Notes under the pieces: generated by a model
Seen by the model: the letters and a program-made list of their open reading frames with translations, nothing else
Told to the model about the DNA's origin: nothing
The model's database searches: none
In this document: piece after piece, positions 9,440 to 37,800 of the stretch
Position numbering within the stretch: the first letter of the stretch is position 1
Layout: each line of letters begins with the position of its first letter
Assembly (NCBI GenBank): GCA_018304425.1
Contig: JAGVWE010000003.1
Location: 64,001 to 128,000, forward strand
DNA: 64,000 bases
Direction: 5' to 3'
Origin: Candidatus Iainarchaeum sp.
Lineage (GTDB): Archaea; Iainarchaeota; Iainarchaeia; Iainarchaeales; UBA10219
Program-made: the position numbers and the translations under genes

Positions 9440-10615
9440 TTAGGCCCTGGCTTTGACCGCTGCGCACTCCCGCTTCAGGAGTTCGGCCTTGTCCGTGCGC
9501 TCCCAGGTGAAGTCCGGGTCGTCTCGTCCAAAGTGCCCGTAGGCGGAGGTCTTGGCGTAAATCGGGCGCCGCAGGTTCAGGGCCTTTATCATGGCTGCAG
9601 GCCGGAAGTCGAAGTGCTTGAGGACCGCGTTGTACAAGGCCTTTTTGTCGACTTTCTCGGTGCCGAAGGTGTCTACCATGACGCTGATGGGCTTTGCCCC
9701 GCCGATGGCATAGGAAAGCTGTATCTCGCACTTGTCGGCGAGGCCTGCGGCAACCACGTTCTTGGCCGCGTAGCGCGCCATGTAGGCTCCGGACTTGTCC
9801 ACCTTGGACGGGTCCTTACCGGAGAATGCCCCGCCGCCGTGGTTGCCGATGCCGCCATAGGTGTCGACGATTATTTTCCGGCCCGTGCAGCCGGCGTCCG
9901 CAACGGGCCCGCCGAGAACGAACCGGCCCGTGTTGTTGATGAAGTACTTCGTGTCCGCGTCCGCCAACGCGCCGCAAACCGGCTGGATGACTTCGCGCTT
10001 GATGTCTACCCTGAGCTTGTCCAGGGAAACATCGGGGTCGTGTTGCGCGGCGATGACCACGGCTTCCACGCGCTTGGGCTTCCCGTTCGCGTACTCGATG
10101 GTCACCTGGCTCTTGCCGTCCGGCCTGAGGTAAGTGAGCACGCCTTTCTTGCGGACTTCGGCCAGCTTGTGGCAGAGCCGGTGGGCCAGCAGGATGGGCA
10201 GGGGCATCAGCTCCGGGGTCTCGTTGGTCGCGTAGCCGGACATCATGCCCTGGTCGCCCGCTCCGACTTCCTTGTCACCGCTCGCGTCCACGCCCAACGC
10301 TATGTCGGGGCTCTGCTTGTTGATGGAAGTCAGCACGCCGACGCTCTGCGCGTCGAAACCGTACTCGGGCTTGGTGTAGCCGACTTCGCGGAGGACGTTG
10401 CGCACGATTTGCTGCACGTCAACGTAGGTCCGGGTCGTAATCTCGCCCGTGACCAAGATGAAGCCGTTGCCGGCCATGGTCTCGCAGCCGACCCGTGCCA
10501 GGGGATCGTCCTTGTAAATGGCGTCCAGGATCGAGTCGCTGATGCGGTCGCATACCTTGTCCGGGTGCCCTTCCGTTACTGCCTCCGACGTGAACAAAAA
10601 GTCTCCGTTGCGCAT
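9440..10615 (-). CDS. metK: S-adenosylmethionine synthetase, bacterial/eukaryotic type
   Basis: [39 protein letters not shown] and AYGHFGR motifs; GGAGG RBS. Confidence 0.95.
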
Positions 10616-10743
10616 GGTGTTTCCTCCCAAGAAAGAAGTATTCCCTGGATTAGATAGGGACCGGTTTATATTAATAATTTCCTGCTGTAATTATTCGCAT
10701 AAGAATAAATAGGGTTTTAAAGGGTTTGAGACAAGGGTATTTC

Positions 10744-11316
10744 ATGCTGCCGGAATTGGGCGACATCAAGTTCAGGCGCAAGCAGTTCGGCTTGACGCAG
10801 TCCGAGCTGGGCCACCGCGCCGGGGTCTCCCAGTCCCTCATCGCGAAAATCGAGGCCGGCAGCCTCGTGCCGAGCTATGAGAACGCCAAGAAATTGTTCG
10901 ACTTGCTGGACCAGCTGCACGAGGAAGTCAAGGTGAAGGCATCCGATCTGATGACGCACAAGGTGTTGAGCATCCCCAGCAACGCGAGCCTGGCGCGGGC
11001 CGCGAAGGCCATGAAGGAGAAGGGGGTGTCCCAGCTCCCGGTCATGGACAACGAAAAAATCGTGGGCACCCTTTCCGAGAAGGACATCCTGCAGCGCATC
11101 CATGACACGGATCACGCCATTGACCTGGGGCAGTTGACGGTTGCCGAGGTCATGGGCGAGCCGCTTCCCCTCATCCGGGAGGACACGACCTTCAGCCTTA
11201 TCTCCTCCCTGCTGGAACACTATCCGGCCGTGCTCATCGGAAAGAAAGGCAAAGCGGTTGGCATCATCTCCAAGTCCGACTTGCTGAAGGTCCTCCTTAA
11301 TAGAAAGAAGAAATAA
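10744..11316 (+). CDS. XRE-type HTH + CBS-pair transcriptional regulator
   Basis: GLTQSELGHRAGVSQSLIAKIEAG HTH; two CBS domains (SQLPV, GIISKSD). Confidence 0.9.
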   Translation: MLPELGDIKFRRKQFGLTQSELGHRAGVSQSLIAKIEAGSLVPSYENAKKLFDLLDQLHEEVKVKASDLMTHKVLSIPSNASLARAAKAMKEKGVSQLPVMDNEKIVGTLSEKDILQRIHDTDHAIDLGQLTVAEVMGEPLPLIREDTTFSLISSLLEHYPAVLIGKKGKAVGIISKSDLLKVLLNRKKK

Positions 11317-11341
11317 TAGTAGGCAGGGGGCGCCGGAGCAA

Positions 11342-11394
11342 AGGTTTAAATACGTAAGCCGCACATAGTAATGTAGGTAGTAACTTTTTACTAC
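11342..11394 (+). promoter_or_regulatory. Promoter P1 of the surface-protein cluster with downstream palindrome
   Basis: AGGTTTAAATAC (11342-11353), CATAGTAATGTAG (11364-11376), then inverted repeat GTAGTAA-CTTT-TTACTAC (11377-11394). Confidence 0.65.
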
Positions 11395-11441
11395 TAACGA
11401 GTGACAAAGGTTTCCACTCGGAAGGGAGGAGGGAGTATTGG

Positions 11442-11744
11442 ATGAATAAGGCAATGGCTTTGGCGTTGATTGCATTGTTTGCTTTGACCGCTTTGCCTAG
11501 CTTTGTCTCAGCCTATTATCCCTATGGGTATTATGGCGGCTACCGCCCCGGCGTTTATAACTACGGGGCACCGTATTATGGCTCGTACTATAACTACGCG
11601 CCAGGCTCGTACTACAACTACGCGCCATTCGTGTACAGCTACGCCTACTACAGGCCGGCCGTATACAACCGGTACTACGCCTACCCAATGGGTTACCCCT
11701 ATCAGTATGGGGGATGCGGCTGGGGTCCATGCGGGTATTGGTGA
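11442..11744 (+). CDS. Secreted Tyr/Gly-rich low-complexity protein
   Basis: Strong GGAGG RBS; Sec-type signal peptide ending VSA. The predicted mature 76 aa contain 28 Tyr and no Asp/Glu, with a GSYYNYAP tandem repeat. Confidence 0.8.
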   Translation: MNKAMALALIALFALTALPSFVSAYYPYGYYGGYRPGVYNYGAPYYGSYYNYAPGSYYNYAPFVYSYAYYRPAVYNRYYAYPMGYPYQYGGCGWGPCGYW

Positions 11745-11804
11745 AGGCAGTAACGGCATGAAGTCTTGCCGCCTAGCTTACAGCAGCGTTGAAAAGGGAA
11801 AAAC

Positions 11805-12332
11805 ATGCGGAAAACCATTTTACTGGCGGGAATGATGGTGCTTGCGTTTTTTGCAGGCAACGCCCTTGCCGCCCCGTTTTACTACTACGGCGAGCAACGG
11901 GCCACGCCTGACTACTTCAACAGCATCGACCCCTTGATCGGCTCGCCCTATTACCCGGAAACCGCCCGGACCTATAGCCTGCGCGGCTACTTCTTCCACC
12001 GCAACTACCCGGTGAGCGCGCTCTCCATGGCCTATGAGCCGCTACGCTCCGAGGAACGGTTTCCCTATGGCAACGTCTACTCGTATGACCCGTTCACGGG
12101 CCTGACCTATCTCACGGGCAGCAAAGGCTACCGGCCATTCGACTACCGCTACAACCAAGGCCTCGGCAGTGCCTGGAACGGCCAAGGCCTTTCGGGCCGA
12201 AGCGCCGGCCGAGACCCCTCGGGTCGAGGCCAGGGCTACCAGTACCTGGACGGCGTGGCCTATAAGCAGCCCGCGGCAGCCAGCCCGGGCTTTGACTTTG
12301 ACACGTATGCCAGAGGGGTAACCTACAGGTGA
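11805..12332 (+). CDS. Secreted Tyr/Gly/Pro-rich protein
   Basis: Signal peptide ending ALA; Tyr-rich mature region. Confidence 0.75.
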   Translation: MRKTILLAGMMVLAFFAGNALAAPFYYYGEQRATPDYFNSIDPLIGSPYYPETARTYSLRGYFFHRNYPVSALSMAYEPLRSEERFPYGNVYSYDPFTGLTYLTGSKGYRPFDYRYNQGLGSAWNGQGLSGRSAGRDPSGRGQGYQYLDGVAYKQPAAASPGFDFDTYARGVTYR

Positions 12333-12336
12333 AAAC

Positions 12337-13137
12337 ATGAAAACCACTGCCTATCTTTTGGGAATAATCTTTTTGGCCTTGTTCGCGGCCAACGCGTTCG
12401 CGCAGGCCACGGTCCAACAGAACCCCATCGATTACACGTACTACGGTTACCCGACGGACTACCCCCTTAACTATATCCTGAAGAATAAGTTCCAGTTGTC
12501 GGGACCGGCCATGTTCGACTTCCGGTTCCTCTCACGGTACATCCCCAACGGAAAGCCGAACATCCTCGAAGAAGGCGTGTGCGTGGACGACGCCTGCTAC
12601 TGCAAGGTGAGATACGGCTTGCACGACAACACGAGTCACGTGCTGCCGCGCGACTACCAGATTTACATCACGCACCACAACAGCGCCAGCGACTACTCCG
12701 CGCCCAGGGGCTCACACAAGGGCTTGTACATGGACTGCGGGCAAAGCGTTTACCCTCCGAACCCCTATTATCCCGGGGAACGGAAGCCGCCCTACGTGCC
12801 CCAGGCTTACACGGCTGAAACCCTGGGCTCCAAGTACGGGACTCCGGTCAGCTGGAGCGTGGCCTATGACTACGCGAAGAACCTGCTCAAGCAACAGCCG
12901 CAGTCGGCCTACACCTACCAGCAGTTCTACGGCTATGGGAACACAAGCAACCCGCAGTTCAACCAGTACACGCGCCAGGGCGCCTACGACTGGGGGTATC
13001 CCATTAACACGACCTACAACCCCTACCAGACCGGAAGCTCTTACCAGGGGCCTACCAGCATTGGAGACCCCCTAGCGGGGGCAGGCGGCTATAGGACCAC
13101 CTACCGGCCGGGGTATACCTATCCCTACAATGGGTGA
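12337..13137 (+). CDS. Secreted Tyr/Pro/Gln-rich protein with a small Cys/His-containing core
   Basis: GGTGA RBS; signal peptide ending AFA; CVDDACYC...HH...H...C core; Tyr-rich tail. Confidence 0.75.
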   Translation: MKTTAYLLGIIFLALFAANAFAQATVQQNPIDYTYYGYPTDYPLNYILKNKFQLSGPAMFDFRFLSRYIPNGKPNILEEGVCVDDACYCKVRYGLHDNTSHVLPRDYQIYITHHNSASDYSAPRGSHKGLYMDCGQSVYPPNPYYPGERKPPYVPQAYTAETLGSKYGTPVSWSVAYDYAKNLLKQQPQSAYTYQQFYGYGNTSNPQFNQYTRQGAYDWGYPINTTYNPYQTGSSYQGPTSIGDPLAGAGGYRTTYRPGYTYPYNG

Positions 13138-15521
13138 AAACCATGCTGTCGCACAAAACTGTCCTCGCACTGGCCTTGTTGGTCTTGCTCGCTTCGAGCG
13201 CACTGGCCCAGACCTACAACTATTATAACCAGCCCACGGTCATCCCCGGGCAGCAGACTTCCAGGATTTCGCAGGCCGACATCGAGAAGGCCTTGCGGGA
13301 AATAGCCCGTGTCTACGGCCAAGTCCAGGGCAGGTTCATTGCCGAACAGCAGACCGGCTACCAGCTTCCAACCGTTGCCCAGGGACAGCCTTCGCTGGCC
13401 GGGCAACTGCAGAAGTACCTGCCCCAACCCACTGCCGCTGCCCAAGGACAACAGGCCAACCCGTTCCTGACCTATGGCTTCCAGCAGGACGTGACTGACT
13501 TGTTCAGCCGGGACTTCGTCCGGCAGCAACAAGGCGAGAACCCCCTGTACTCGCTGCCCCAGTACAAGCAGGACCCCCAGGCCCAAGCCGCTTACCAGCA
13601 GGCGCAACTCCCCGATTACCGGGAAGTGCGGCTGGTGGAATTGCGGGAGCGCAGCGTGCTCCAGGGAAACATGGAGTTCTTTGACGTGGAAATCAGGAAC
13701 ACGAACTTCATGCCCCGGGCCTATGCCTTGCACGTTGAGAAAGAGGATGCTTCCCTGAAGACCTCGCTGTCGGAGAGCGCGTTTTCGCTGGCTCCAGGCG
13801 AGGCCCGGACCGTGAAGGCCATCGTGGAGCCCACCAAGGAGACCAAGCCGGGCGCCAAGGCGGTTTACGTCGTGGTTACGAGCAGCCCCACCACGAGCGC
13901 CCCTACTGGCACTGGTTTGGGGCAACCCAGCTATTATGGCCAGGAATACGATTATGGTGGGGCCTCGGCTCTGGCCTCGGCTGCGGCCTCGGCTTTGCCC
14001 GCGCCCGTGATGGGGTTGCAGCGGCTGGTCGTTTCATTGGAGGACTTCCAGAAACCCGTCAAGGCCGAAACCGTCGTGTTGAAAGTCAACCGCCAGGAGT
14101 ATGACGTGGGCGCGAAGGGCTTTGACGTCCAGGTCAGCCCGAACAAGGTGGGCGGTTCGGACAAGGTAGAGGTCAGCATCGCTGAAGACTTTTTCGTGGG
14201 CAGCCAGCCTGCCGTGGTGGAAGTCCTGTTCATGGATGCGTTCGACAACGCGTACTCGCTTTCCTTTGAGTTGGTGCCCTCCAAGTACGAGGTCCAGGCC
14301 CGCAACCTCGAGTTCAAGGCCCAGGTCTTCAAGGCTTTGCAGTATGGCCGCGAGTTGCGGAACGCTTACTTCCGCGCGAGGGCTTCGACCGGCAAGTACG
14401 TGAAGAACAACGCGTACCAGTTGCAGGGGCCCCGGGCGTTCGTGAAGCTGGAGGAAACCATTCCAGTGGGCTCGAAGAATAACTTCGAGTTTTATGCGGA
14501 AGACCAGTTTGGCACTTACTTCAAGACGGTGGGAAGCTTCACCATCCGGTTCCTCGTGGCTCCCCAAGGCATGGGCTTGCCCGAGCAGGGCTACCGGGAG
14601 TACGGCAACAAGCAGGAGTACCGGGAACCGCTGACCCTGAGTGTCGTGGAAAAGCCGGTCTTGGCGGACGTGCTGCAGATTACCGCTTATCCGGCTGAAA
14701 TTAGCCTTAAAGGCGGGGAAAGCCGGGCTTTTGAGGTCAGCGTCTTGAATGCGGGCACGGAGCCGGCCAGGGACCTGGACCTGGCTTTGAGGGGGCTGCC
14801 GCAGGGCGTTGAATTCACGGCGAGCCAGGTGGATGAACTGCCGGCCGGAAAGTCCGCTGTGTTCAAGGCCACGCTGGCCACTGGTCTGGACGTCGAAAAA
14901 TCGTTCAGCCTGGAACTCGAGGCAAACGGCCTGGGCTTGATTGCCGCAGGCAAGGCATTGACCCTGAAATTGGAGCCCAAGCCACGGGTGTCCGAGCAGA
15001 ACCTGGTCAGCGAAGTCGTTGAACGCGAGCTCTCAAAGACCACGGTGAAGAGCAAGGTCTCCGACGAACAAATCAAGGCCGAAGTCGAGAAGATGATTTC
15101 CGCCCTGCAGTCCGAGGGCTTGAAGAAGGAGTCCGCCGAAAAAATCAGGGAACTGATTCCGGTGGACTTCGCCGTGAAGGCGAACATCTTGAATGCCGAG
15201 GGTGAGAAGGTGGACGCGCTTTACGGGATCAAGAAGGGCAAGGACTTGTTTGTCACGCGCGTGTATGACGGCATCGTGAACTCGGAGGTCAACCTGGACT
15301 ACGATACCTTGAACCGGTTGGCCGTGGAGAACATGGTGGGTTCCTTTGGCCAGGCGGGCCTGGTGGGCTTTGGGGTCAGCGACCAGGGAGTCGCAGTGGG
15401 TTTGGTCATCCTGGTGATTGGCCTGGTCGCCGTCATTTTGCTGTTCCGGGAAAAGCACAGTTCCAACGAGAAGTTCCTCCGCAAGCGGAACTTCGCCGTG
15501 ATTAAGGCCAAAAACCATTAA
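13134..15521 (+). CDS. Large membrane-anchored surface protein (Q/Y-rich N-terminus, Ig-like/NEW3-like domains, C-terminal TM)
   Basis: Signal peptide; beta-sandwich-type motifs (FSLAPGEARTV, VSVLNAG...LPQG...LPAGKS); hydrophobic helix followed by a basic tail. Confidence 0.8.
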   Translation: MKTMLSHKTVLALALLVLLASSALAQTYNYYNQPTVIPGQQTSRISQADIEKALREIARVYGQVQGRFIAEQQTGYQLPTVAQGQPSLAGQLQKYLPQPTAAAQGQQANPFLTYGFQQDVTDLFSRDFVRQQQGENPLYSLPQYKQDPQAQAAYQQAQLPDYREVRLVELRERSVLQGNMEFFDVEIRNTNFMPRAYALHVEKEDASLKTSLSESAFSLAPGEARTVKAIVEPTKETKPGAKAVYVVVTSSPTTSAPTGTGLGQPSYYGQEYDYGGASALASAAASALPAPVMGLQRLVVSLEDFQKPVKAETVVLKVNRQEYDVGAKGFDVQVSPNKVGGSDKVEVSIAEDFFVGSQPAVVEVLFMDAFDNAYSLSFELVPSKYEVQARNLEFKAQVFKALQYGRELRNAYFRARASTGKYVKNNAYQLQGPRAFVKLEETIPVGSKNNFEFYAEDQFGTYFKTVGSFTIRFLVAPQGMGLPEQGYREYGNKQEYREPLTLSVVEKPVLADVLQITAYPAEISLKGGESRAFEVSVLNAGTEPARDLDLALRGLPQGVEFTASQVDELPAGKSAVFKATLATGLDVEKSFSLELEANGLGLIAAGKALTLKLEPKPRVSEQNLVSEVVERELSKTTVKSKVSDEQIKAEVEKMISALQSEGLKKESAEKIRELIPVDFAVKANILNAEGEKVDALYGIKKGKDLFVTRVYDGIVNSEVNLDYDTLNRLAVENMVGSFGQAGLVGFGVSDQGVAVGLVILVIGLVAVILLFREKHSSNEKFLRKRNFAVIKAKNH

Positions 15522-15549
15522 CCCCCTGGAAAGCCTTGATAAGGCCTGG

Positions 15550-15567
15550 GAGGCTTATTCTAGCCTC
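15550..15567 (+). terminator. Hairpin between the two halves of the cluster
   Basis: GAGGCT-TATTCT-AGCCTC inverted repeat. Confidence 0.3.
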
Positions 15568-15583
15568 AATTGCCGCCAGAGAT

Positions 15584-15638
15584 AGGTTTAAATACTACCT
15601 CGGCAGCATGGTATATGTAGCTTGTTCACATGAACAAG
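15584..15638 (+). promoter_or_regulatory. Promoter P2 of the surface-protein cluster with downstream palindrome
   Basis: AGGTTTAAATAC (identical to P1), CATGGTATATGTAG, then perfect inverted repeat CTTGTTCA-CA-TGAACAAG (15621-15638). Confidence 0.65.
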
Positions 15639-15654
15639 TTAATCAAGGTGGGTT

Positions 15655-16191
15655 TTGGTGAAAAACACGGCAATCTTCCTGGCACTCTTGTTGGTGGTTA
15701 CAACCATCCGGGCAGAAGTCCTTGAACTGCCTGCCGAAGTCCAGTTTAGCGGACAGCCGGTCGAACTCTCTTTTAAGGTACGCAATGAGGCCTTCCAGGC
15801 CCTGCCGGTGCAGGTCGACGTCCAAGTCGTTTCCTTCAAGGTCCTGCGCAAGCCCGACCTCGTCCAACCCGGGGAAGTCCAGGAAATCCGGCTGCAGCTT
15901 CAACCCAGGAACGACCTCCTCGGCTCAACCTACCAGTCCACTATCACGGTCAAGATGGGGGCCCAGGAAACCCGGAAAGAAGTCAAATTCGTTTTCGGGG
16001 AAGCCCCCAAGCAGGCCCCGAAGAAAAATGCCCTCCCTCCAGCCACTCCAAAGGCTCCCACCGCATTCGCGGTGCTGCCCCTGGCCTTCAACGAGTTCAT
16101 GATGAACCTGGGGCTCGCGTTGCTGGCGGCCATTCTCTTGATTTCGTTCATTGCAAGGCTTACCAAAAGATTCATGCAAAACAGGGGTTGA
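15655..16191 (+). CDS. Small single-Ig-like-domain membrane-anchored protein
   Basis: Signal peptide, VQPGEVQEI beta-sandwich motif, Pro/Ala linker, PTAFAVL, TM helix, basic tail. Confidence 0.75.
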   Translation: MVKNTAIFLALLLVVTTIRAEVLELPAEVQFSGQPVELSFKVRNEAFQALPVQVDVQVVSFKVLRKPDLVQPGEVQEIRLQLQPRNDLLGSTYQSTITVKMGAQETRKEVKFVFGEAPKQAPKKNALPPATPKAPTAFAVLPLAFNEFMMNLGLALLAAILLISFIARLTKRFMQNRG

Positions 16192-16197
16192 AAAAAG

Positions 16198-17715
16198 ATG
16201 GACAAAGTCTTCCTCACGGGTTTGTTGATGGTCTTCCTGCTCGGATTGCCTGGTCTAGCCGGCGCCGTGACTTTCTCTGACCGGCTGCCAACAGGCGATA
16301 GCTCGAACGACCCCCTCCAAAAGATTGCCGTAACCCTTTCCGACCCGGACGGCATCAACAAGGACAAGGTTTACTTCGAAGTCGACGGCTTCAACTATGC
16401 CTTGAACGACCCCCGCATGAGCTATAACGAGGCCACGGGCCGCCTGGAATATACTCCCATCCGGGAGCGGGACGAACTCGACAAGGTGGACGTACTCGTT
16501 TCAGCCGAAGACACCCTGGGAGAAAAAGGCGAACTCCGGTTTTCCTTCACGATTAACTCCATCGGCCCGGCACCCATTGACTTCCTTTCCTTCGAAGCCG
16601 GCGTGCTCCGGTGGGCAAAGCCCTTGTCCCTGGACTCGGTGGCCAAGTACAAAGTCTACCGGGACACTTCCAGAATCAAGGACAACGGCAAGTCAGCCTA
16701 CTTCCTGGCCGAGGCTACGGGATTGAATTACACGGACTCCACAAGGGAAGAAGGAAAGAGATACTTCTACGCCGTTACGGCGGTGGACAACGCAGGCAGC
16801 GAAGGCCGGATTGCCTTGAACGTCTCCAGTGACGGACAGGTCTTCCCGGTCGGCCAGCCGGCTCCGGCTCCCCTGCCCCTGCCGTTCCCGGTTTACCCGG
16901 CACCCACTCCATTCCCTCCGACGGTGCCATACCCCGGCTTCGAAGGATTCGACCCTTACCCCCTGCCGAGCCCCAGCATCCCGTTCACGGGCCGCGTGGA
17001 CTTCGCTCCGAAGGGAGAAGTCATCCAACTCGAGCGCGGCGGCATTTCAAAGGCCGACTTCTCGGTCTCCAACGGTTTGCCCGTGGAAGTCACGGTCCGC
17101 TTCGAGATGAGTCAGGCCTCCATCGGCAACGGAACCGTTTTCATGTTCCAGCCCCAGAGCCAGCAGCTCCGCTACGGCAGGGGCTCCGGCTTCAAGCTCG
17201 CACCCGGCGAGACCACGTTTATCAGCCTGCCCGTAAAGGCCTCCGAACAGGCGTTGCCAGGCATTTACCTGCTGGGCATCGATTTAATCGCCTTGGACGA
17301 GGAAGGCCGCATGGTCTACTCGGACAGCTCCGGGGCGGAAGTGCAGGTATTCGCGCCCCTGCCCGAGCCTTTGGCTGCCGACCTGGTTCCCGCCAACTAT
17401 TACCAAGAGCTGGCACCGGTTGAAGACAACGGCCGCATCGAGGCCAGAATCGTCGAAGCGCCTCAGCCACTTATCCGCATCGCCGTGGAAGACGCCCAGG
17501 TTGCGCCCAAGCAAAAGGCAGCCGAGGCCGCAGCCGAGGCCAGAGCCGAGGCCCGTCAACCGCTGACCCAGGTCGCAGTCAAAGAGGCAGGCAATGCCCC
17601 TGCCGGGTTCTTCAACCTGGCCGCCATGACCACCCTGAACATGGCCCTCGGCTTCCTGGTGCTGGCCTTGTTGCTGGTGTACGGTTTAATCAGGCTTTCA
17701 GTGGAGAGGCGGTGA
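16198..17715 (+). CDS. Membrane-anchored surface protein with an FN3-like domain and Pro-rich linker
   Basis: Signal peptide; W...YKVYR...YTD...YFYAVTAVDNAGSEG (FN3-like); PAGFFNL before the TM helix. Confidence 0.8.
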   Translation: MDKVFLTGLLMVFLLGLPGLAGAVTFSDRLPTGDSSNDPLQKIAVTLSDPDGINKDKVYFEVDGFNYALNDPRMSYNEATGRLEYTPIRERDELDKVDVLVSAEDTLGEKGELRFSFTINSIGPAPIDFLSFEAGVLRWAKPLSLDSVAKYKVYRDTSRIKDNGKSAYFLAEATGLNYTDSTREEGKRYFYAVTAVDNAGSEGRIALNVSSDGQVFPVGQPAPAPLPLPFPVYPAPTPFPPTVPYPGFEGFDPYPLPSPSIPFTGRVDFAPKGEVIQLERGGISKADFSVSNGLPVEVTVRFEMSQASIGNGTVFMFQPQSQQLRYGRGSGFKLAPGETTFISLPVKASEQALPGIYLLGIDLIALDEEGRMVYSDSSGAEVQVFAPLPEPLAADLVPANYYQELAPVEDNGRIEARIVEAPQPLIRIAVEDAQVAPKQKAAEAAAEARAEARQPLTQVAVKEAGNAPAGFFNLAAMTTLNMALGFLVLALLLVYGLIRLSVERR

Positions 17716-28885: not shown

Positions 28886-31800
28886 TTACACCCGGATGGT
28901 CTTCCCACTTTCATGGTAGCGTTTCAAGGTGTAGGCTGCCAAGAAGGAAACGCCGATTTCGGCGAGGGCCGCGATGACGCCCAGGCCGAGCCTCGAGGAG
29001 AGGCCCAGCCACAGCGGCAGCGCGAAGGCCAGCAGGGCCAGGAAGGCCTGCACGAGTTTCTCGCGCTTCAAGTGCGTCGTCGACTTGGGCCCGGGCGGGA
29101 AGAACGCCCGCGCCTGCGAGTACACGAGGTAGGCGGCGGCCATGGCGCATACCAGCAGCAGGACCACGGCAAAGGGGCCGACCTGCTCGATGGCCTCGAT
29201 GGTGGGTTCCAGGGAACTCGAAATCGAGTTCAAGATCGAGCCGAACAAGTCCAGGGCGCTGAAAGACTTTTCCGCGGAAAGCTGTTCCTTGACGACTTTC
29301 ACGGCGTACACGCCCGGCACCTTCACCGTGAACTCGACCTTGCCCAGCTCGTCCGTGAGCGCCTCCAGCTTTTCGCCGTCCGGGGCCTCCGCGATGACGG
29401 TCGCGGCGCGGATGGTGTTGCCCAACTGGTTCCTGACTTCCACGACCTGCCGCTCGCCGATGGTCAACGACTGCTTCAAGGCAATCAGGAGTTCCTCGGG
29501 CTCCGAGCAGTCCGAGGCCTTGTCCCGGCAGGTGCCGTCCGCGCACTGGACCGTTTCCTCCGGACACTCGCAGTTGCCGGACTCCAGCGAACAACGCGCG
29601 CCGCGCTCGCAGTTGCTGATCAACCCCTCGCAGTCCCCGCACACGCAGGACTCGTCCAGGCCGCACACCCCATCCGCCTCGCAGGAAGCCGGCTGGCCGC
29701 AGAGCATGCTAGGCTTGCAGCTTCCGTCCGTGCACCGGTTGGTTCCGGCCGGGCAAGCCGCGACCGGCGAGCACTTGCCGCGCGCGTCCAGCACCGTTCC
29801 CTTTGGACAGGCACAGGCGCTCAACCGCACATTGCAGGCCACGGTGGAAGCACAGATGCCTTGCTTGCCGTCGCAGTCCCGGCACGAGCAGTCCTCGCTG
29901 GCCTCGCACACGCGGTCGTTGTCGCACAGCCGGGGAGAAGGCGGCTCGCTCACGGCCAGGTCCAAAATGAATTCCCCGAAACCCTGCTCGCCTTCCAAGA
30001 ACACGACCTTCAACCCGTTGGGCAGGCGCTCAATGCCTGCCGCCAGGTTGCTGCCCAACGCCTCGCTGAACTCGAATTTGATGCGTTCCGCGACCTTGAG
30101 CCGGCCCAGGGAAAACGAGAGCTTGTTGGGCGAGGGAAGCAGGTAACCGGGCTTTCCGGGCTTGTCCTTGCCGTAAATCCGCATGGAGGCCGGGGTCTTG
30201 ACCTTCAAGCCGATTTTTTTTGCGGCAAAGTTGGCCTGCGGTTGCTCAACTTCGAAGACCAGGTCGTCCACGGTCTTCAGGTCCTGCGCGGCCTTGAACC
30301 GGAAGTCCAGGGAAAACCTCCCGGAAGCCGAGTCCCGCACCGAGGACTTCAAGCTGTAGAACTGGCCGTTCACGAAGCGGTCCGAGTACTGCACCTGGAC
30401 GTTCTTGTTGCCACCCGAGACCCTGAGCTTCGCGCCCTCCGGCACCGGGACCCCATTGGCTTGGAATTCCACGCTGCCCTGCTGCAAGGGCTTTGAAAAG
30501 TTTTCAAAGGTCAGGTTGATCTTCATGTCCACGGGCCCCGGAACCAGCGAACAATCAGGGCGACAGCTGTTGTCCGCGCAGAGGTTGGTTCCAGGCAAGC
30601 AGCCGCCGGCCTTGCAGGTTCCGTCCGGGGCCAGCACGGTTCCGGTGGGGCAACCGCACAAGCCGGTTCCGGTTGAGCCCACGGTCTCGCCGAAGTAACG
30701 GCAGGCCGAGGCATCCACGCAGCCGTCCTTTTGGCTAGCACAATCCGAACAATTGCAGGCCTCCGTGGTTTCACACGCGCCGTCCCGGTTGCAGGGCAAG
30801 AAATTGCCGGAACCACAGTCCACCTTGCAGGTGTTGTCCAGGCAACGAGTCGTTCCCACCGGACAGCCTCCACCTACCGAACCGCAGTCCACCTTGCAGG
30901 TGTTGTCCGAGCACAGGCTCTGACCAACCGGACACTGCAAGGGGGGACCGCAATAGTCGCGGCAGCTGCCGTCCACACAGGCAGTTTTTCCAACCGGGCA
31001 AATAGGACAATTAACTTGACAAATCGGGGGCCCACAGTCCAGCCGACAGGCGCTGTCCGAGCACAGGGTTTGGCCGACCGGGCAGGGCCCGCAAAACGTG
31101 CGGCAGGTGTTGTCCGCGCAACGCGTTTGCCCTCCTGGGCAAGGCAAGCAGTTGCTTTTACAGGGGCCGGGACCTGGGTCGGGCGTGCACAGCCAACTGC
31201 ACGAGCCATTGGAGCATCTGGTTTTGGGCGGCAGGCAAGGCGGGCCCGAACCGCAGTCGGCTTGGCAAGTATTGTCTTCACAGCGCTGTAAACCATTGGG
31301 GCAGGGCAGGCATTCGACAAAAATCCCGGTGCAGGGTCCGGGCCCGCAATCGGTTTGACAACTATTGTCTCCGCACAACTGCTGGCCCGGTGGGCAGGCA
31401 CCGGTTCCGCAGTCCGGCCGGCAGACATCGTCCGCGCACAAGGCTTGCCCGAGCTGGCAGGGGCCACAGAATTCCCTGCAGGAACCGTCCAGGCATGGAA
31501 TCCTTCCAGGGGGACAGGACGGACAGTTCACCTGGCAGGGACCTGGCCCCCGGCCGCTGCCGCAATCAAAGCGGCAAACGTTGTCCTCGCACACCTTCTT
31601 GGGAGGCAAACAGGGCTCGCCCCCACCCGGCCCACAGTCGACCTGGCAGGAACCATTGGCGCACCGGTTCAGGCCGGGCAGGCAAGGCACGCAGTTGACC
31701 TGGCAGGGACCCGGCCCACAATCCAGCCGGCAGGAGTTGTCATTGCATGTTTGGCTGGGTGGCGTGCAAGCCTGGCCCTGGCATTGGCTGGGAGGCTGGC

Positions 31801-34800
31801 AGGTGCCATCCAGGCAACGCGTCAACCCCTCTGGGCAGGGAAGCGATTGGCAGTAGGGGCTGCAGCTCCCGTCCACGCACAAACCGCTGCCCGGCGGACA
31901 GGACTGGCGCGGGCAACGGCCTGGGGCCGCGCATTGATTGCAGCCCTCGCACAAAACCGTTCCCTGGCTGCACTCGCAGACATTGGCGGCGGGGAGTTCG
32001 CCGGAAAGCATGGCCAAGCCGTTCACGCAGGGGCTTGACGAGCCCACGGGGCAGGGAGTGATGAGGGGCAGCAACCGGCTTTGGAGGTTGCCGCGAACCA
32101 CTGAGTAAAGGGAGAGGGACGACTGCTGGAGCTTGAGTTCTGCCAGGACATAGGCGTTGCCGCTGGACTGGGTTTCGGTGGCAAGAACGGTGGGCATGGA
32201 AGTGAGTTGCCCGTTAAACAAGGGAAGGGCTCTATTCGAAGCGTCGACGAGTTGCAGCATGCATTGGGGGACGGCTGGCCGGGTCAGGCAATAGTCGATG
32301 AACTTCACGGAATAGTGGCGGAGGCCGCGGGTGCCGAGGACATTTCCCTTCTGGGCAAAGGCGTCTTGGCTGGGGCAGGAGGCCTTGGTCAGCCCTTCCC
32401 AGGGGGTGGCGCGCAGGCAGGCGTTGCCCTGCAGCTTGCAGTACAAGGCAGGCAAACCGTTTTCTTCGAGCAAGGCCCAGTCCACGGCGCCCGCGCAGTG
32501 CAGGAGGGGTGCGGCTTGCAGGGGCACGCTTGGCTCCACGTAAAACGCCGTGACGCTGTTCAAGCCCGAGTTCCCGGGCATGGGCTGGGAGTAGGCAACC
32601 AGGATGTTTTCGCGGCCTTCCCTGGCCAGCTGGTTTTTGGCGGGTTCCGCGCACTTCGCTCCCTGGATGCAGCTGCTGGGCTGGCCAAAGCAGTCGCTGC
32701 AGGAACAGTTCTCGTTGACTTCGCATAGCTTGTTTTCATTGCAAGGCAGGCTTCCCTGGTTCGCGCCTGGGCAGGCCGTCGCGCACAAGCCGGTGGGGCA
32801 GCGCGTGGTGCCGGGCGGGCAGTTGCTGTTGGTGGGCTGGTTGAGTTTTTCCTGGCAGGCCAGTGGGACTTCCATGGTTTGCTGGGTGCAGTCCACTTCG
32901 AGGGGAATCAGGTAGCTTTGCACGCTGGCCGTGGGCGGCAGCCCGATCACGGGCGGCATGCCTCCGGGGAAGAGGAAGGAAGTCAGGAGGTTGACGAAGT
33001 TGTTGCCGCTGCATTCCGTGAAATCGTCCGCGCCGTTGAGGTTGTTGTCGTCCAAGCCGTTGTTGCAGGTGCCGACGAGGAAGGGCCGTGCAAGGAAGTT
33101 GCCCGCGGACTGGTTGAGTTGCACGAGCAGGAGCAGGAGGTCTCCTTGCTTGGCCTGGCTAGTGTCGAGGAAGGACTCGTAGGAAGGCGTGGAGCCCAGG
33201 GCCAGGGGAGTGGAACCCGGCGGGTCGAAGGCATTAGGGGGAACTGTCCAGGGGCTGGACTGGCCTGGATTGTCCGATGGCTGCCGGGAGTAGGGGGGCA
33301 CTGAACCGGCTGGGACCAGGATCCAGGCCGCGCCCGTGAAGGGCAGGACAAAGTGGGAGTCCAGGTAGTTGAAGGAATTCGGCGAGCGGAACAAGAGGGT
33401 GATGGCGGCCGGCAACTTCATGAACATATTCATGATGACGGGCATGGGCAGGCCAGAAAAACAGGAGTTGCCTGGCAGGGTGAGCTGGCCGAGGGCGCCT
33501 GCGTTCACCGTGGTGGGGCAGCTGATGCCCAACGGCTTGGCATCGATGAGGAAGGTGTTGGTCCAATAGGCTTGGGGGTTCGAGCAGCCCTGCACGGCCG
33601 GGCAGTCCGAGCAACCGCAGCCCTCGCCGTAATTGCAGGCGTTGTCGTAGTTGCAGTAAGCGGAAACGTTGAGGGGGTTGGCAATCGTGTTGAGTTGCAG
33701 GCGCACCCGGGTCCTGCCGCTGAACGCGGAATTCTGGGGGCAGATTTTGATGCCGGGCTGGAGGATGCTGGTGCCGCCCGGGGTGGGCAACTGCGTGTAC
33801 GTGGTTCCGGGGTTGGTGGGGCTTGAAATGAGGGGGCCCATGATGCGCAGCACTTTGTCGGTGGAGTCTGCGATGGAAATCTGTTGGAGCGAGAAATGGG
33901 GGCTGGTGAGGGAAGCAACCGGCGGCGTGTAAGAATAGGTGACGGTTATGCTTGCCGTCAGGGTGTAGGCCGGGATGGTTCCGCCGGGACCGATGGCGTT
34001 CGGGTTTCCAGAGCTTGGCAGGCTGGTTTGGGCTGGGACGGTGGCTGAAACCGTGACGGTGTTCTGGCCCGGGCTCAGCGAAACGTTCCGGGTCATGGAG
34101 CCGTTTCCTTGGCCGGTAACCTGCACCGAGTTGTTGACGGCCAGCGAGTAGGACAAGGGGCTGGGGGACGTGAGGGTGAATGCGATGGGAATCGTGGCCG
34201 TGGTGAAGGAGGCATTGTTTGCCGGGGAATTGATTACGAGGGTGGGGGTGGTGGGCGCATTGTACCAGATACGGTGCCAGCGGTAGGCCCAGGCTCCGTC
34301 CCGGGCCTTGGCGTACAAGCGGAGGATGTTCGAGCCCGGGTTCAGGCCGGAAATGGTTTTCTGGAACGAGCCGCGTCCATAGCCGGCGTAAAGCTGTTTT
34401 CCATTCAACTGAATGGTGTAGTAAAGGGGACTGGGCCGCGTGCGCAGGTCGTCAATGAAGAAGCTGGCGTTGATGACCGAACTGGTGAACCGTTGGTCGG
34501 GGTAGGGAGAGAGGATGGATGTGGTAACCCGGTTGGAGGTCATGGGTGGCGTGGGAAAGGAGGGAAGGGAGGGATTCGGGAAGGGCAGGGAGGACGGGGG
34601 CAGGTTGATGCCCTGGAGGTTCAGTACGAGGGGCTTGCCGCTTTTTTCCCTGCTGGCAAGGTGGCCGGAACCGCTGCCGGAGCCACTGGAGCTTCCTTCT
34701 TCGACTACTATGTAAACGGTGTCGGAAGCCGTTTTGTCCAAATAGGTGGCCTGGACCCGAATGGGAATGCTTCCGGTCTCGGTCAGGGCCAGGGGCACCT

Positions 34801-37800
34801 CAAAGCGCTGGCCGAACAAGGGCAGCTCACCCAGGAACTGGTCGTTGACGAACAATTGAATACTGGCTCGCCCGGCTTCCGCGCCTTCCACGGTTCCGGA
34901 TAGTTCAATGCCGGCCACGGGCGGGGAAGCGCCGTAGCCGTGGGAAGCGTTTTCCGCCACGAAGTTCTCGTAGTTGGCCGCGAGGACCAAACCGTCAGCG
35001 GGGGAAAGGATTTGGACGCGGAGCGGAACCGGCGGCGGTGACCTGGGCTGGTCATAGGTTACGTGGATGGTGTGGCTTGCCGCCAGCTGATCGGCGTTCA
35101 GGGCTTCCGCCGTGATTGTGTTTTCCCCGGGCACGAGGCCAACGGCGGCTGAAAAGGTCCCTGCCTGGTTCACGGCAAACGATTGAACGGGCTGGAAGTT
35201 CACGAAGAGGGTGAGGGAAACCGCGTTCGTGGCCTTGATGGATACCTGAGCCAGGTGGCTACCGGTCCGGGTTTTGTCGGCGGGCGCGACCAGGGTCACG
35301 GTGGGAGGTTCGACCGGCGGAGGCTGCTTGGTCCGTACTGGCTCATAGGTCACGGAGTAAATCGTGCTGCCCTTGTTTCCCCTGGCATCGCTTGCCTCAA
35401 ACCGGAAGGAGTTCAGGCCCTCGGACAGGCTCACGCCCACGGAAAAGTTTCCGGCCGCGTCCAAGGGCACGGAGGAGACTTGGTTGCTTCCCTTGAAGAC
35501 CTGCACGAGCGGGGGCTCGACTTTCACGTTGTCGGAAGCGTTTCCACTGATAAGAAAACTGGGTTCCGAGGTCCTGGTTTGCGTGGACGAGAAGAGAATG
35601 CGGGGTTTCTCCTCGTCAATGAAGGGGAGGAATGGCTGCGAGCGCGTGACCGCAACGGATTGGTATCCGGTGTTGCCGGCCTTATCCAGGGCTGCGACCG
35701 TGATGAGGTTGGAGCCCAGTAAGAGGGCTACGACGCCTGCAAAGGTTCCATTGGAAACCGCCACGGTGAGGGGTTGGCCGCCGTTCACCGTAATCCAGGC
35801 CGAGTCCCGGATTGAAACATTGTCCCTGACCTCGCCCGTGACTTCGATGGTGGCGGATTCCGTGGACGCATTGCTGGCCGGGCTCCGGATGAAGATGCTG
35901 GGGGGCAGGTCGTCAACGGGTTCCCAGGGTGGCTTGGGCCCCAATGGGTTTCTGGCCACCGTGAATTCCGTGACTGCCGCGTTTCCCGAGGCATCTGTGG
36001 CCGTGAGCTGGAATGCGTTGGAGCCCAACTGCAAGTTGCTCACCGTGTTGAAATGGCTGGTCGCGTCCAGGGCCAGCGGAGTTGGGCTGCCGCCGTTCAC
36101 GCGCAAGGAAAGGCCACCGAGGCCTTGGCCGAGGCTTCGGTTGTCGGTAACTTTTCCCTTGACTTCGATGGCGGTTTCCTGGGTGTGCAAGCCGTCCGCG
36201 GGGCTCGAGATCACGATGACAGGCGCTATGTTGTCGGCTTCGACGTAGAACACGGTCAAAGAAGTGGTTGCTGTGTTGCCGGCCAGGTCCCGGGCGCGCA
36301 CCGAGAGGAGGTTGGAGCCAGGCACCAGGGAAATCGGGAGCGAGGAAAATAGCGCGCCCTGGGGGATGAGGGAAAGCAGGGGACCGTTGTTCACGTTGTA
36401 CGCCAGAGAGGCGATGCCGACATTGTCGATGGCCGAGCCCCTCAATGTCGCTGTGGACGTGAGGAGGGTTTCCCCGTTCAAGGGGCTTGAAATGCTGACG
36501 ACCGGTGGTTGGTCATCCTCGCCTGGCGGGGGGGTAATGGACACGCGGTAGAAGGTAATCGTTGCATTGGATGTGTTGGCCAGGGAGTCCGCTACCGTCA
36601 TGCGCAGGGTGTGCTGTCCCTCGGAGAGGTTGGAGAGCGTGAAGGAAAAGGCCGGGGTCGGGGCCAGGACTTGTTGGACTCCATTGTCCAGGCTATAGCT
36701 GATGAAGGAGAGGCCGCTGGCATCACTGGCCGTGCCGGTCACGGTCAAAAACGAGCTGGTGAAGCTGGCGTTGTTTGCGGGTTGCGTAATCGCCAGGATG
36801 GGACCGTCCTTGTCAACGGGGGGCACAATGGCGGCTTCATAGGTTATGGAAAGCAGGCGCGTGGTCTTGTTGCCGGCCTCGTCCTGGGCTGCTAGGGAAA
36901 GGGTGTTGGGGCCCGGGGTCAAACCCATTACCATAACGCGGAAAGCGTTGTTGGTCACAGGGTACAGCGTGGACGCGCTTCCGTTCAAGGAAAGGCCGAT
37001 GGTGGTCATCGTTGAGCGGTCATCGGAAACGCTGCCGGCCACATTGACTTGGGACTGGGAAACAATGGCTCCATTGACCGGCTCGGCAACGGTCAATGCC
37101 GGGGCAACCGTGTCAGGTACGGCAAATGAAACGGAGAGGCTGTGGCTGGTGCGGTTGCCGGCCGCGTCCTGGACCATGAAGGAGAGGTTGTTGGTGCCGA
37201 CTGCGAGGCCGAAAACCTCGAAGTCGAAGGCATTGTTGGTAACCGGGTAAACCTGGGGCGGACCGTTGTTCAGCCGTGCTTCGACTGCCAGGGTTCCGGG
37301 CCGGTCATCCGAGGCATTGCCCTTGACCTGCACTTTGTTCGTGGACACGGTTTCCCGGTCAAGGGGCTGCGTGATTTCCAGGAAGGGGGCCACAATATCT
37401 TGTGGGGGCGTTGACACCGCGTCGCGGAAATAGGTTTGGGTGTTGCTTCCCTGGTTGCCCTGTGTGTCCAGGGCCATCACTTCCACGGCATAGGCTCCCA
37501 CGGTGGGCATCAGCAGGGGAAATGAAAAAGTTGCCGACACCGGCAGGTTTTGCAGGGTGCCCCCGTTCACGCGGAAGGCAAGGGAAGCAAGGCCGCTGGA
37601 ATCACTAGCCGTGCCAGCAATGGGCAGGGACGCGTTGGTTGTCCGGAAGCCGTTGGGTGGAGTGGTGAACGTGATTTCGGGGGCAAGGGTATCGGGCTTG
37701 GCATAGGTTACGGTCAAGGCAGCGGTGCCGGTGTTGTTGGCTGCGTCCTTGGCCCTCACGACCAGGGCGTTAAGCCCTTCTGCCAGGGCGAGGTTCGCGG

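Follow-up and report, generated by a model that had tools for sequence, protein, structure and literature searches.

What might a secreted peptide of 76 residues, more than a third of them tyrosine, do at the head of a run of archaeal surface-protein genes? The peptide, P1 (id P0001), is encoded by an open reading frame of 100 aa (11442-11744, + strand) within a window of 64,000 nucleotides, the whole stretch of Candidatus Iainarchaeum sp. DNA that was analyzed and to which positions refer unless a contig or locus is named. The genome under study, G000, is 1.48 Mb long, 92.55% complete and the sole member of its family among the genomes searched; other G-numbers denote the genomes of relatives and L-numbers denote loci. 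The named relatives of G000 proteins belong to Candidatus Diapherotrites/Iainarchaeum, which places the organism in the Iainarchaeota (DPANN). The preferred answer, to which a probability of about one half is attached, is that P1 is a real, exported and largely disordered peptide that serves as a non-covalent aromatic glue or sticker, condensing on the Iainarchaeota cell surface.

P1 divides into a predicted Sec-type signal peptide of 24 aa (11442-11513, +) and a mature peptide of 76 aa (11514-11744, +, including the stop codon). The signal peptide was assigned by sequence rule from an MNK n-region, a 12-residue hydropathy of 2.78 and a V-S-A site, with cleavage predicted after residue 24. A gene at G000 C1:175057-175866 carries a GSMEP motif, which we take to be that of a signal peptidase; the PF00717 profile matched no archaeal control genome and is hence silent on this enzyme. 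The mature peptide (about 9.1 kDa, net charge +3) has the composition Y28 G13 P9 A6 N4 R3 V3 S3 C2 W2 F1 M1 Q1, amounting to 36.8% Tyr versus a genome mean of 2.8%, and to 31 aromatic residues (41%). A recount agrees with the sequence-only reading, which had reported 28 Tyr in the 76 aa after VSA and Arg as the sole charged residue: there are three Arg and no Asp, Glu, Lys or His. At 16 Tyr per 40 aa, P1 has the highest Tyr density among the 1,435 predicted proteins of G000, which are gene calls from a simple purpose-made caller. The tyrosines belong to this frame, with 28 TAC/TAT triplets in it versus 1 and 0 in the other two forward frames.

Two further features had been described from the sequence and both are present. 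A tandem duplication of 24 nt (11580-11627, +) encodes GSYYNYAP twice, the copies (11580-11603 and 11604-11627) being identical at 23 of 24 nt with the single change synonymous; when P1 was shuffled 5,000 times with its composition preserved, two of the shuffles produced an exact repeat of 8 aa. The carboxy terminus, GGCGWGPCGYW (11709-11741, +), contains Cys92 and Cys97 in a C-x4-C arrangement that could accommodate a putative disulfide. The ESM Atlas model of P1 has a pLDDT of 0.36 and a pTM of 0.18.

The archaeal TATA box of the P1 operon, TTTAAATA (11345-11352, +), was identified by consensus match and lies 97 nt upstream of P1, which heads a run of seven same-strand genes (P1-P7), each with a signal peptide. 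A sigma-70 promoter scan is unsuited to archaea. The Shine-Dalgarno sequence, GGAAGGGAGGAGGGAG (11420-11435, +), was located by its duplex with the 16S tail of the same genome (-11.2 kcal/mol, in the top 3.2% of 1,276 genes). The strength originally claimed for this ribosome binding site stands, while the sequence quoted for it does not, as the true one has one A more. A leader hairpin (11373-11398) gave a z of -1.24 and no Rfam match.

The P1 TATA box is followed by a short ATAGT element, and the same element is found behind three other surface-gene TATA boxes of G000. A motif that was defined after looking, TTTAAATAC-N11-12-AT[AG]GT, is present at 6 of 100 TTTAAATA sites, four of which precede P1, P5, P0013 and P0014. 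An independent matrix made from 24 relatives' promoters ranks these four promoters 24, 2, 13 and 28 of 254, respectively; since the ranked sites include non-promoters, a shared promoter class is a weak hint. A TATA box, often with GCA/ATAGT about 11 nt on, was also noted at 11345-11372 and 15587-15614 of the window, at C3:53433 and C3:112881 of G000, and in relatives (L187-L216). The arrangement could possibly, on this slight support, represent a promoter class or a regulator site.

DNA of the P1 region is present in 17 listed public DNA runs from groundwater and soil metagenomes, five of which are possible sources, and the contigs of run X6 gave depth in 29 of the 30 bins covering 10600-16300, the P1 bins included. 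No RNA run was listed as containing the region. Because it combines a signal peptide, a TATA box and a strong ribosome binding site with a surface-protein locus, P1 is probably a real, exported and well-translated cell-surface gene.

The conserved upstream neighbors that define this locus (9440-11316) were identified by neighbor comparison as metK on the reverse strand and an HTH-CBS gene on the forward strand. The metK gene itself (9440-10630, -) encodes a bacterial-type S-adenosylmethionine synthetase, and throughout the order it keeps its place beside the HTH-CBS gene and this surface locus. Downstream of P1, P2 (11805-12332, +) is a secreted protein of 175 aa with 14% Tyr after its signal peptide, and P3 (12337-13137, +) is a secreted protein of 266 aa with 15% Tyr and four Cys; both lack an anchor and neither matched a Pfam or NCBIfam family. 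P0005, a member of the P2 cluster, diverges after approximately residue 128 into another Asn/Tyr/Ser stretch, which suggests a longer allele. P4 (13143-15521, +) has a signal peptide and a Gln/Tyr-rich amino terminus, and P5 (15655-16191, +) is a small Ig-like protein that carries an anchor and is preceded by a TATA box of its own (15587-15594); P5 serves as a marker of the conserved locus, with matches in 77 of 151 genomes, G000 included. P6 (16198-17715, +) and P7 (17721-19544, +) are anchored surface proteins with Pro/Gln-rich linkers, and Ig-like domains and C-terminal transmembrane anchors are found in all of P4-P7.

Twenty loci from the P5-matching genomes were compared. The recurring elements are metK, a P5-like gene, large surface proteins and, in most cases, the HTH-CBS gene; a six-frame scan found a Tyr-rich gene in 0 of the 20, the best candidate being one 51-codon frame with 9 Tyr per 40. 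P1, P2 and P3 are thus additions that this lineage has made to an old surface locus, and P1 is not a core subunit of it. Outside the set of 20, the metK locus of G111 encodes, after the P5 ortholog, a secreted Cys/Arg-rich protein of 271 aa that contains the stretch YNYYYYNYYYY (L294:2606-3421, +).

The search for homologs that had been suggested for P1 came back empty. There were no hits by phmmer over 1.84 billion representative proteins, 0 of 26 candidates stood up from a word-index search of 5.8 billion clusters, and no match was found in Pfam, NCBIfam, PDB sequences or viral contigs; the exact sequence is absent from a 15-billion collection. Against 40 relatives, P1 gave four weak matches only (E 0.03-0.09), which have internal stops and fall inside unrelated genes. 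The best feature score in the ESM Atlas, 0.85 to Planctomycetota clusters, is a lead only. Metagenome scans identified no relatives of P3; with the HTH-CBS protein they yielded five loci (39-51% identity), all of which lack a Tyr-rich gene. The standing of G000 as the only sampled member of its family explains by itself the missing P1 orthologs. Separately, a DGR origin of the tyrosines by adenine mutagenesis was rejected, as G000 holds no template-like copy of P1.

P1 is accompanied by other Tyr-rich proteins in its own genome. Eight of the 1,435 proteins have at least 8 Tyr per 40 aa. Judged by eye from their N-termini, every one of them seems to be exported or anchored at the surface; five pass a hydropathy cut that is passed by 21% of all proteins, two have mis-called starts and one scores 2.2. 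A second free secreted peptide, P0013 (L126:3421-3879, equivalent to G000 C3:52920-53378, -), is 27% Tyr and 23% Gly, contains five GYG motifs and is encoded beside secD/secF; in the 195 other genomes it has two weak off-frame matches and no relatives. P0014 and P0015, encoded between rtcB and rpl3, have Tyr-rich amino termini followed by Ig-like domains. The free Tyr peptides carry a net charge of +2/+3 and the Tyr-rich end of the anchored P0015 a net charge of -14, a complementarity that concerns one genome only.

A search with P0014 gave matches in 29 of 196 genomes and led to a surface protein encoded between rtcB and rpl3. In many relatives, this protein starts, right after the signal peptide, with a domain of approximately 120 aa that is 25-34% Tyr and has invariant Tyr, Trp, Pro and Gly positions; a three-Ig stalk and a C-terminal anchor follow this Tyr tip. 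One example of the tip domain, from alignments A1/A3, lies at L145:2455-2898 (-) in the rtcB-rpl3 locus. The tip-domain profile matched 33 of the 196 genomes at E<1e-7, representing nine families, plus one weak match, and did not match G000. It also matched 30 longer proteins of a large collection, of which the named ones are Diapherotrites or 'archaeon'; there is no Pfam family for the domain. AlphaFold2 predicts the tip to be a meander of short strands (pLDDT 75-90) atop three Ig domains and a C-terminal helix. Searches of the tip model with Foldseek against the PDB and BFVD gave no match at E 0.001 and the best VIA-align Z was 2.2, results that do not establish a new fold. For the full-length model, the matches were to Ig-array proteins and had low TM-scores only.

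P0014 and the tip-domain family align co-linearly, beginning at the signal peptide and reaching as far as the first Ig (hhalign 97.6%), and P0015 aligns with the second Ig (98.2%). From these alignments, G000 carries a split version of the protein with a decayed tip. In a midpoint-rooted tree of four proteins from 15 genomes, G000 groups with a tip-domain carrier (support 0.89).

Directly upstream of the tip-domain gene, six genomes from three families (G110, G168, G068, G145, G025 and G082) encode small secreted peptides with 27-42% Tyr, in which a signal peptide is followed by 90-142 aa with no anchor; the count of 6 in 196 genomes is a lower bound. A profile of these peptides retrieved its own members and four unrelated weak matches only, and a complex prediction for the G110 tip+Ig1 fragment with the G110 small peptide gave no answer (score 0.00). 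In genus g27, a tract in another anchored protein reaches 31-32 Tyr per 40 aa. A 190-codon stretch over this tract contains 108 identical, 63 synonymous and 19 non-synonymous codons. Rough dN/dS was 0.09 for two pairs of small peptides, and two pairs of tip domains gave 0.06-0.11. Exported segments rich in Tyr thus recur as a trait of the order, and the relatives' segments, as distinct from P1, are under purifying selection where pairs are comparable.

The poly-Tyr protein is approximately 1,040 aa in length (G070 L289:368-3496, +; G117 L295:1834-4968, +), with 20 pattern hits in G026 as well. Its repeated Asn-Asn-x-Phe motifs look beta-helix-like by eye, and the rest of the tract is mostly Trp. 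A Tyr-codon DNA pattern run over the 196 genomes returned mostly AT-rich noise, with similar results from controls; 30 loci and six regions were read, and the pattern led to G082, G070/G117 and G111.

P1 has the traits of the small peptides in that it possesses a signal peptide, no anchor, at least 27% Tyr and a position as the first gene before anchored Ig proteins, and three of the six begin SA/YYPY as P1 does. It differs from them in location, since theirs is the rtcB-rpl3 locus (which in G000 holds P0014 and P0015) and that of P1 is the metK locus, and in being Gly-rich and free of acidic residues whereas they are mostly acidic, Asn/Asp/Ser-rich and Gly-poor. Eight of the first 11 residues of mature P1 are identical to the G110 peptide (p 5e-5 for a window picked after looking; 7e-4, 4e-4 and 1e-3 for windows of 8, 15 and 20). 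Pairwise p values were 0.001-0.05 for the two closest peptides; global alignments gave 0.001-0.02 for G110/G168 and 0.2-0.44 for G145/G025, with a local p of 0.18 for G082. Alignments of P1 to P0013 and to one tip domain are just as good (p 0.0007-0.02). Against the small-peptide profile (alignment A4), p was 0.08-0.21 with an hhalign value of 23% that covers the signal peptide only; against the tip-domain profile (A1/A3), P1 scored 31.4 versus 28.9±3.8 for shuffles (p 0.24, hhalign 13%). The tie between P1 and the relatives' Tyr segments is one of composition, export and position before anchored Ig proteins, with homology unproven.

As a glue, P1 would be exported via Sec and then cleaved. 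Its 31 evenly spaced aromatic residues, separated by Gly, Pro and Asn spacers, would stack on each other and on Tyr-rich ends in P2, in P3 and in the Ig-stalk proteins that are anchored. The peptide is assumed to be retained at the surface despite lacking an anchor, where it would condense as a sticky layer outside the cell, by which host cells, neighbors or particles could be attached to. In the G000 lineage, the relatives' ordered Tyr tip domain has decayed to a low-complexity segment, and the free Tyr peptides P1, P0013, P2 and P3 may have assumed part of its role. Expression, cleavage, retention, condensation and adhesion are all steps that we infer. A structural or adhesive role, as was proposed from the outset, stays the likeliest class for P1.

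One survey reports a strong depletion of aromatic residues in the low-complexity regions of prokaryotes (PMC6821194), so the Tyr bias is unlikely to be drift. Tyr is rare in such regions and costly, yet here it is concentrated in exported segments of several independent forms and kept by selection. In vitro, short peptides rich in Tyr assemble by themselves as fibrils or sheets (PMC6382316), which also favors the glue. P1 is probably a real orphan gene, and it suggests a selected use of tyrosine at the cell surface throughout the Iainarchaeota lineage. A bolder extension is offered tentatively, and as less probable than the glue itself: much of Iainarchaeota may build a Tyr outer layer composed of an Ig stalk with a Tyr/Trp beta-meander tip, condensing free peptides and, in one genus, a poly-Tyr tract. 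Such an archaeal aromatic glue or coat would grip hosts or particles, possibly also passing protons or electrons along stacked tyrosines.

In its proposed way of working, P1 would resemble secreted structural proteins of aromatic, low-complexity type: sulfur globule proteins, the Tyr-rich proteins of mussels and diatoms, and designed Tyr peptides. Among known adhesives, P1 resembles mussel foot proteins and the diatom protein AC3362 in being secreted and Tyr-rich (28/76). DOPA-type adhesive proteins have plentiful Lys/Arg beside their aromatics. Mussel foot proteins are eukaryotic and DOPA-dependent, in contrast to P1 with its three Arg, no Lys and no linked oxidase. A study of AC3362 places this Tyr-rich protein in an insoluble matrix, with the organism reported to be without DOPA and complex coacervation raised as a DOPA-free route (PMC4220933).

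The alternative that survives best, though it is judged well short of the glue in probability, is that P1 is a soluble polyspecific binder or decoy whose Tyr/Gly/Ser surface recognizes host glycans or soaks up viruses or toxins, as might the relatives' folded tip, with no material being formed. Antibodies and carbohydrate-binding modules have Tyr-rich binding surfaces. In the relatives, the Tyr domain crowns an Ig stalk at the end farthest from the membrane, which is where an adhesin usually has its binding domain, its Tyr/Trp/Pro positions are invariant, and its predicted fold suits a specific binder as well as a glue. P1, however, has neither a confident fold nor an anchor, and its internal duplication is typical of low-complexity proteins. 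The existence of several unrelated Tyr-rich forms, with densities of up to 31-32 Tyr per 40 aa, suits a bulk property better than a single ligand.

In an alternative that develops the sequence-only reading, which had named an adhesive or amyloid, P1 would be an abundant building block of ordered, amyloid-like fibres, with Tyr-Arg cation-pi pairing and a tip closed by a disulfide holding the subunits together. First place in the operon and a ribosome binding site in the top 3.2% fit an abundant subunit, aromatic residues alternate in the stretch FVYSYAYY, and C-x4-C is found in P1 and also in the G082 peptide; of five comparable peptides from relatives, one has Cys, likewise as C-x4-C. Designed YYACAYY peptides show Tyr-driven self-assembly, with Cys-dependent (disulfide) sheets in vitro, and hybrids of them conduct protons (PMC6382316). 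These are synthetic 7-mers, which illustrate possible chemistry as opposed to the behavior of P1. The specific contacts fare poorly. Cation-pi pairing as a driver would rely on three Arg for 28 Tyr, and four of the five comparable peptides are acidic (net -4 to -25; the other is +1); the shared feature is therefore Tyr density, as opposed to an absence of acids. The closed tip is likewise not supported as a general feature: four of the five lack Cys and, although DsbA-like genes (named by eye) are present, DsbB and VKOR were not found in the 92.55% complete genome. Proline disfavors long cross-beta strands, and P1 has nine Pro in 76 aa. Curli and Fap amyloids have several imperfect Gln/Asn/Gly repeats, a family profile match and a dedicated operon for export and nucleation. 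P1 differs in having one 8-aa duplication, a single Gln and four Asn, and P1-P3 have no Pfam or NCBIfam match. Taken with its absence from the locus in 20 of 20 relatives, these features make an ordered fibre improbable.

A covalently hardened coat, with P1 as a precursor whose Tyr is converted to dityrosine or DOPA by an exported oxidase, is rated lower again. G000 encodes its own Tyr synthesis (tyrA in an aro operon) and a multicopper oxidase with a hydrophobic amino terminus. The oxidase, however, is on another contig in a setting resembling a metal-resistance island. It occurs in 16 of the 196 genomes but in only 3 of the 33 that have a tip domain. Haem peroxidase, DyP and P450 were not found in G000, and the DOPA or dityrosine that the sequence-only reading proposed to look for is not supported as a general feature. 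The PF00264 tyrosinase profile found nothing in G000 and matched no control genome either. The small contig in question (C2:1-11565) carries DsbA-like, CcdA-like, repressor, rhodanese-like and multicopper oxidase genes, and reads like a metal-resistance island with all names but that of the oxidase given by eye.

Similarly improbable is that P1 arose recently as an orphan, lacks any selected function and is carried along by its export signals. The lack of a homolog in the 1.84 billion representatives or 5.8 billion clusters would fit such a gene, as would a GC3 of 0.67, near the 5th percentile of the genome. Against this, the promoter, ribosome binding site and signal peptide are intact, and each of the 28 Tyr codons is one base off a stop, yet the frame has none. 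G000 has a second such gene in P0013, comparable peptides of relatives are under purifying selection, and the want of a sampled relative within the family is enough to account for missing orthologs.

Equally improbable is that P1 is of the sulfur-globule type, as an envelope protein, or that it is a precursor of a RiPP with excised and modified GSYYNYAP cores. P1 has a Sec signal (by sequence rule), a small size and a duplicated 8-aa unit, and SgpA/B/C of Allochromatium vinosum (PF17228) are described as small, exported, repetitive structural proteins (PMC10386293). On the other side, P1 has no PF17228 match (E 0.1; there were no candidates in G000, and 0 of 196 genomes were over the cut-off, as were 0 of 14 controls), and G000 is archaeal with no periplasm expected, an Ig-fold surface locus and no SoxZ or FCSD found at 92.55% completeness. 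Neither a modifying enzyme nor a protease is encoded in the P1 locus, and about 22 kb separate it from the closest radical SAM gene.

P1 bears on host attachment and the cell covering of DPANN archaea, and the literature searched describes no Iainarchaeota envelope. In that search, which covered few subscription papers, no description of Tyr-rich Iainarchaeota or Diapherotrites surface proteins was found. The word 'tyrosine' is absent from the main text of an S-layer survey (bioRxiv 10.1101/2024.05.28.596244) and of a DPANN surface study (bioRxiv 10.1101/2023.10.27.564410), and occurs once in a DPANN genomics paper (PMC8407392). If the glue reading of P1 is true, a DOPA-free, Tyr-based archaeal underwater glue would be of interest for biomaterials. 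With only 76 residues, P1 can be synthesized and the idea examined at low cost, while the relatives' tip domain, being anchored and folded, offers a target for structural work. Elsewhere in the window, a gene on the reverse strand (28886-39565) encodes a surface protein of 3,559 aa that contains numerous Ig-like repeats and a region of Cys-rich repeats and has a membrane segment at its carboxy terminus.
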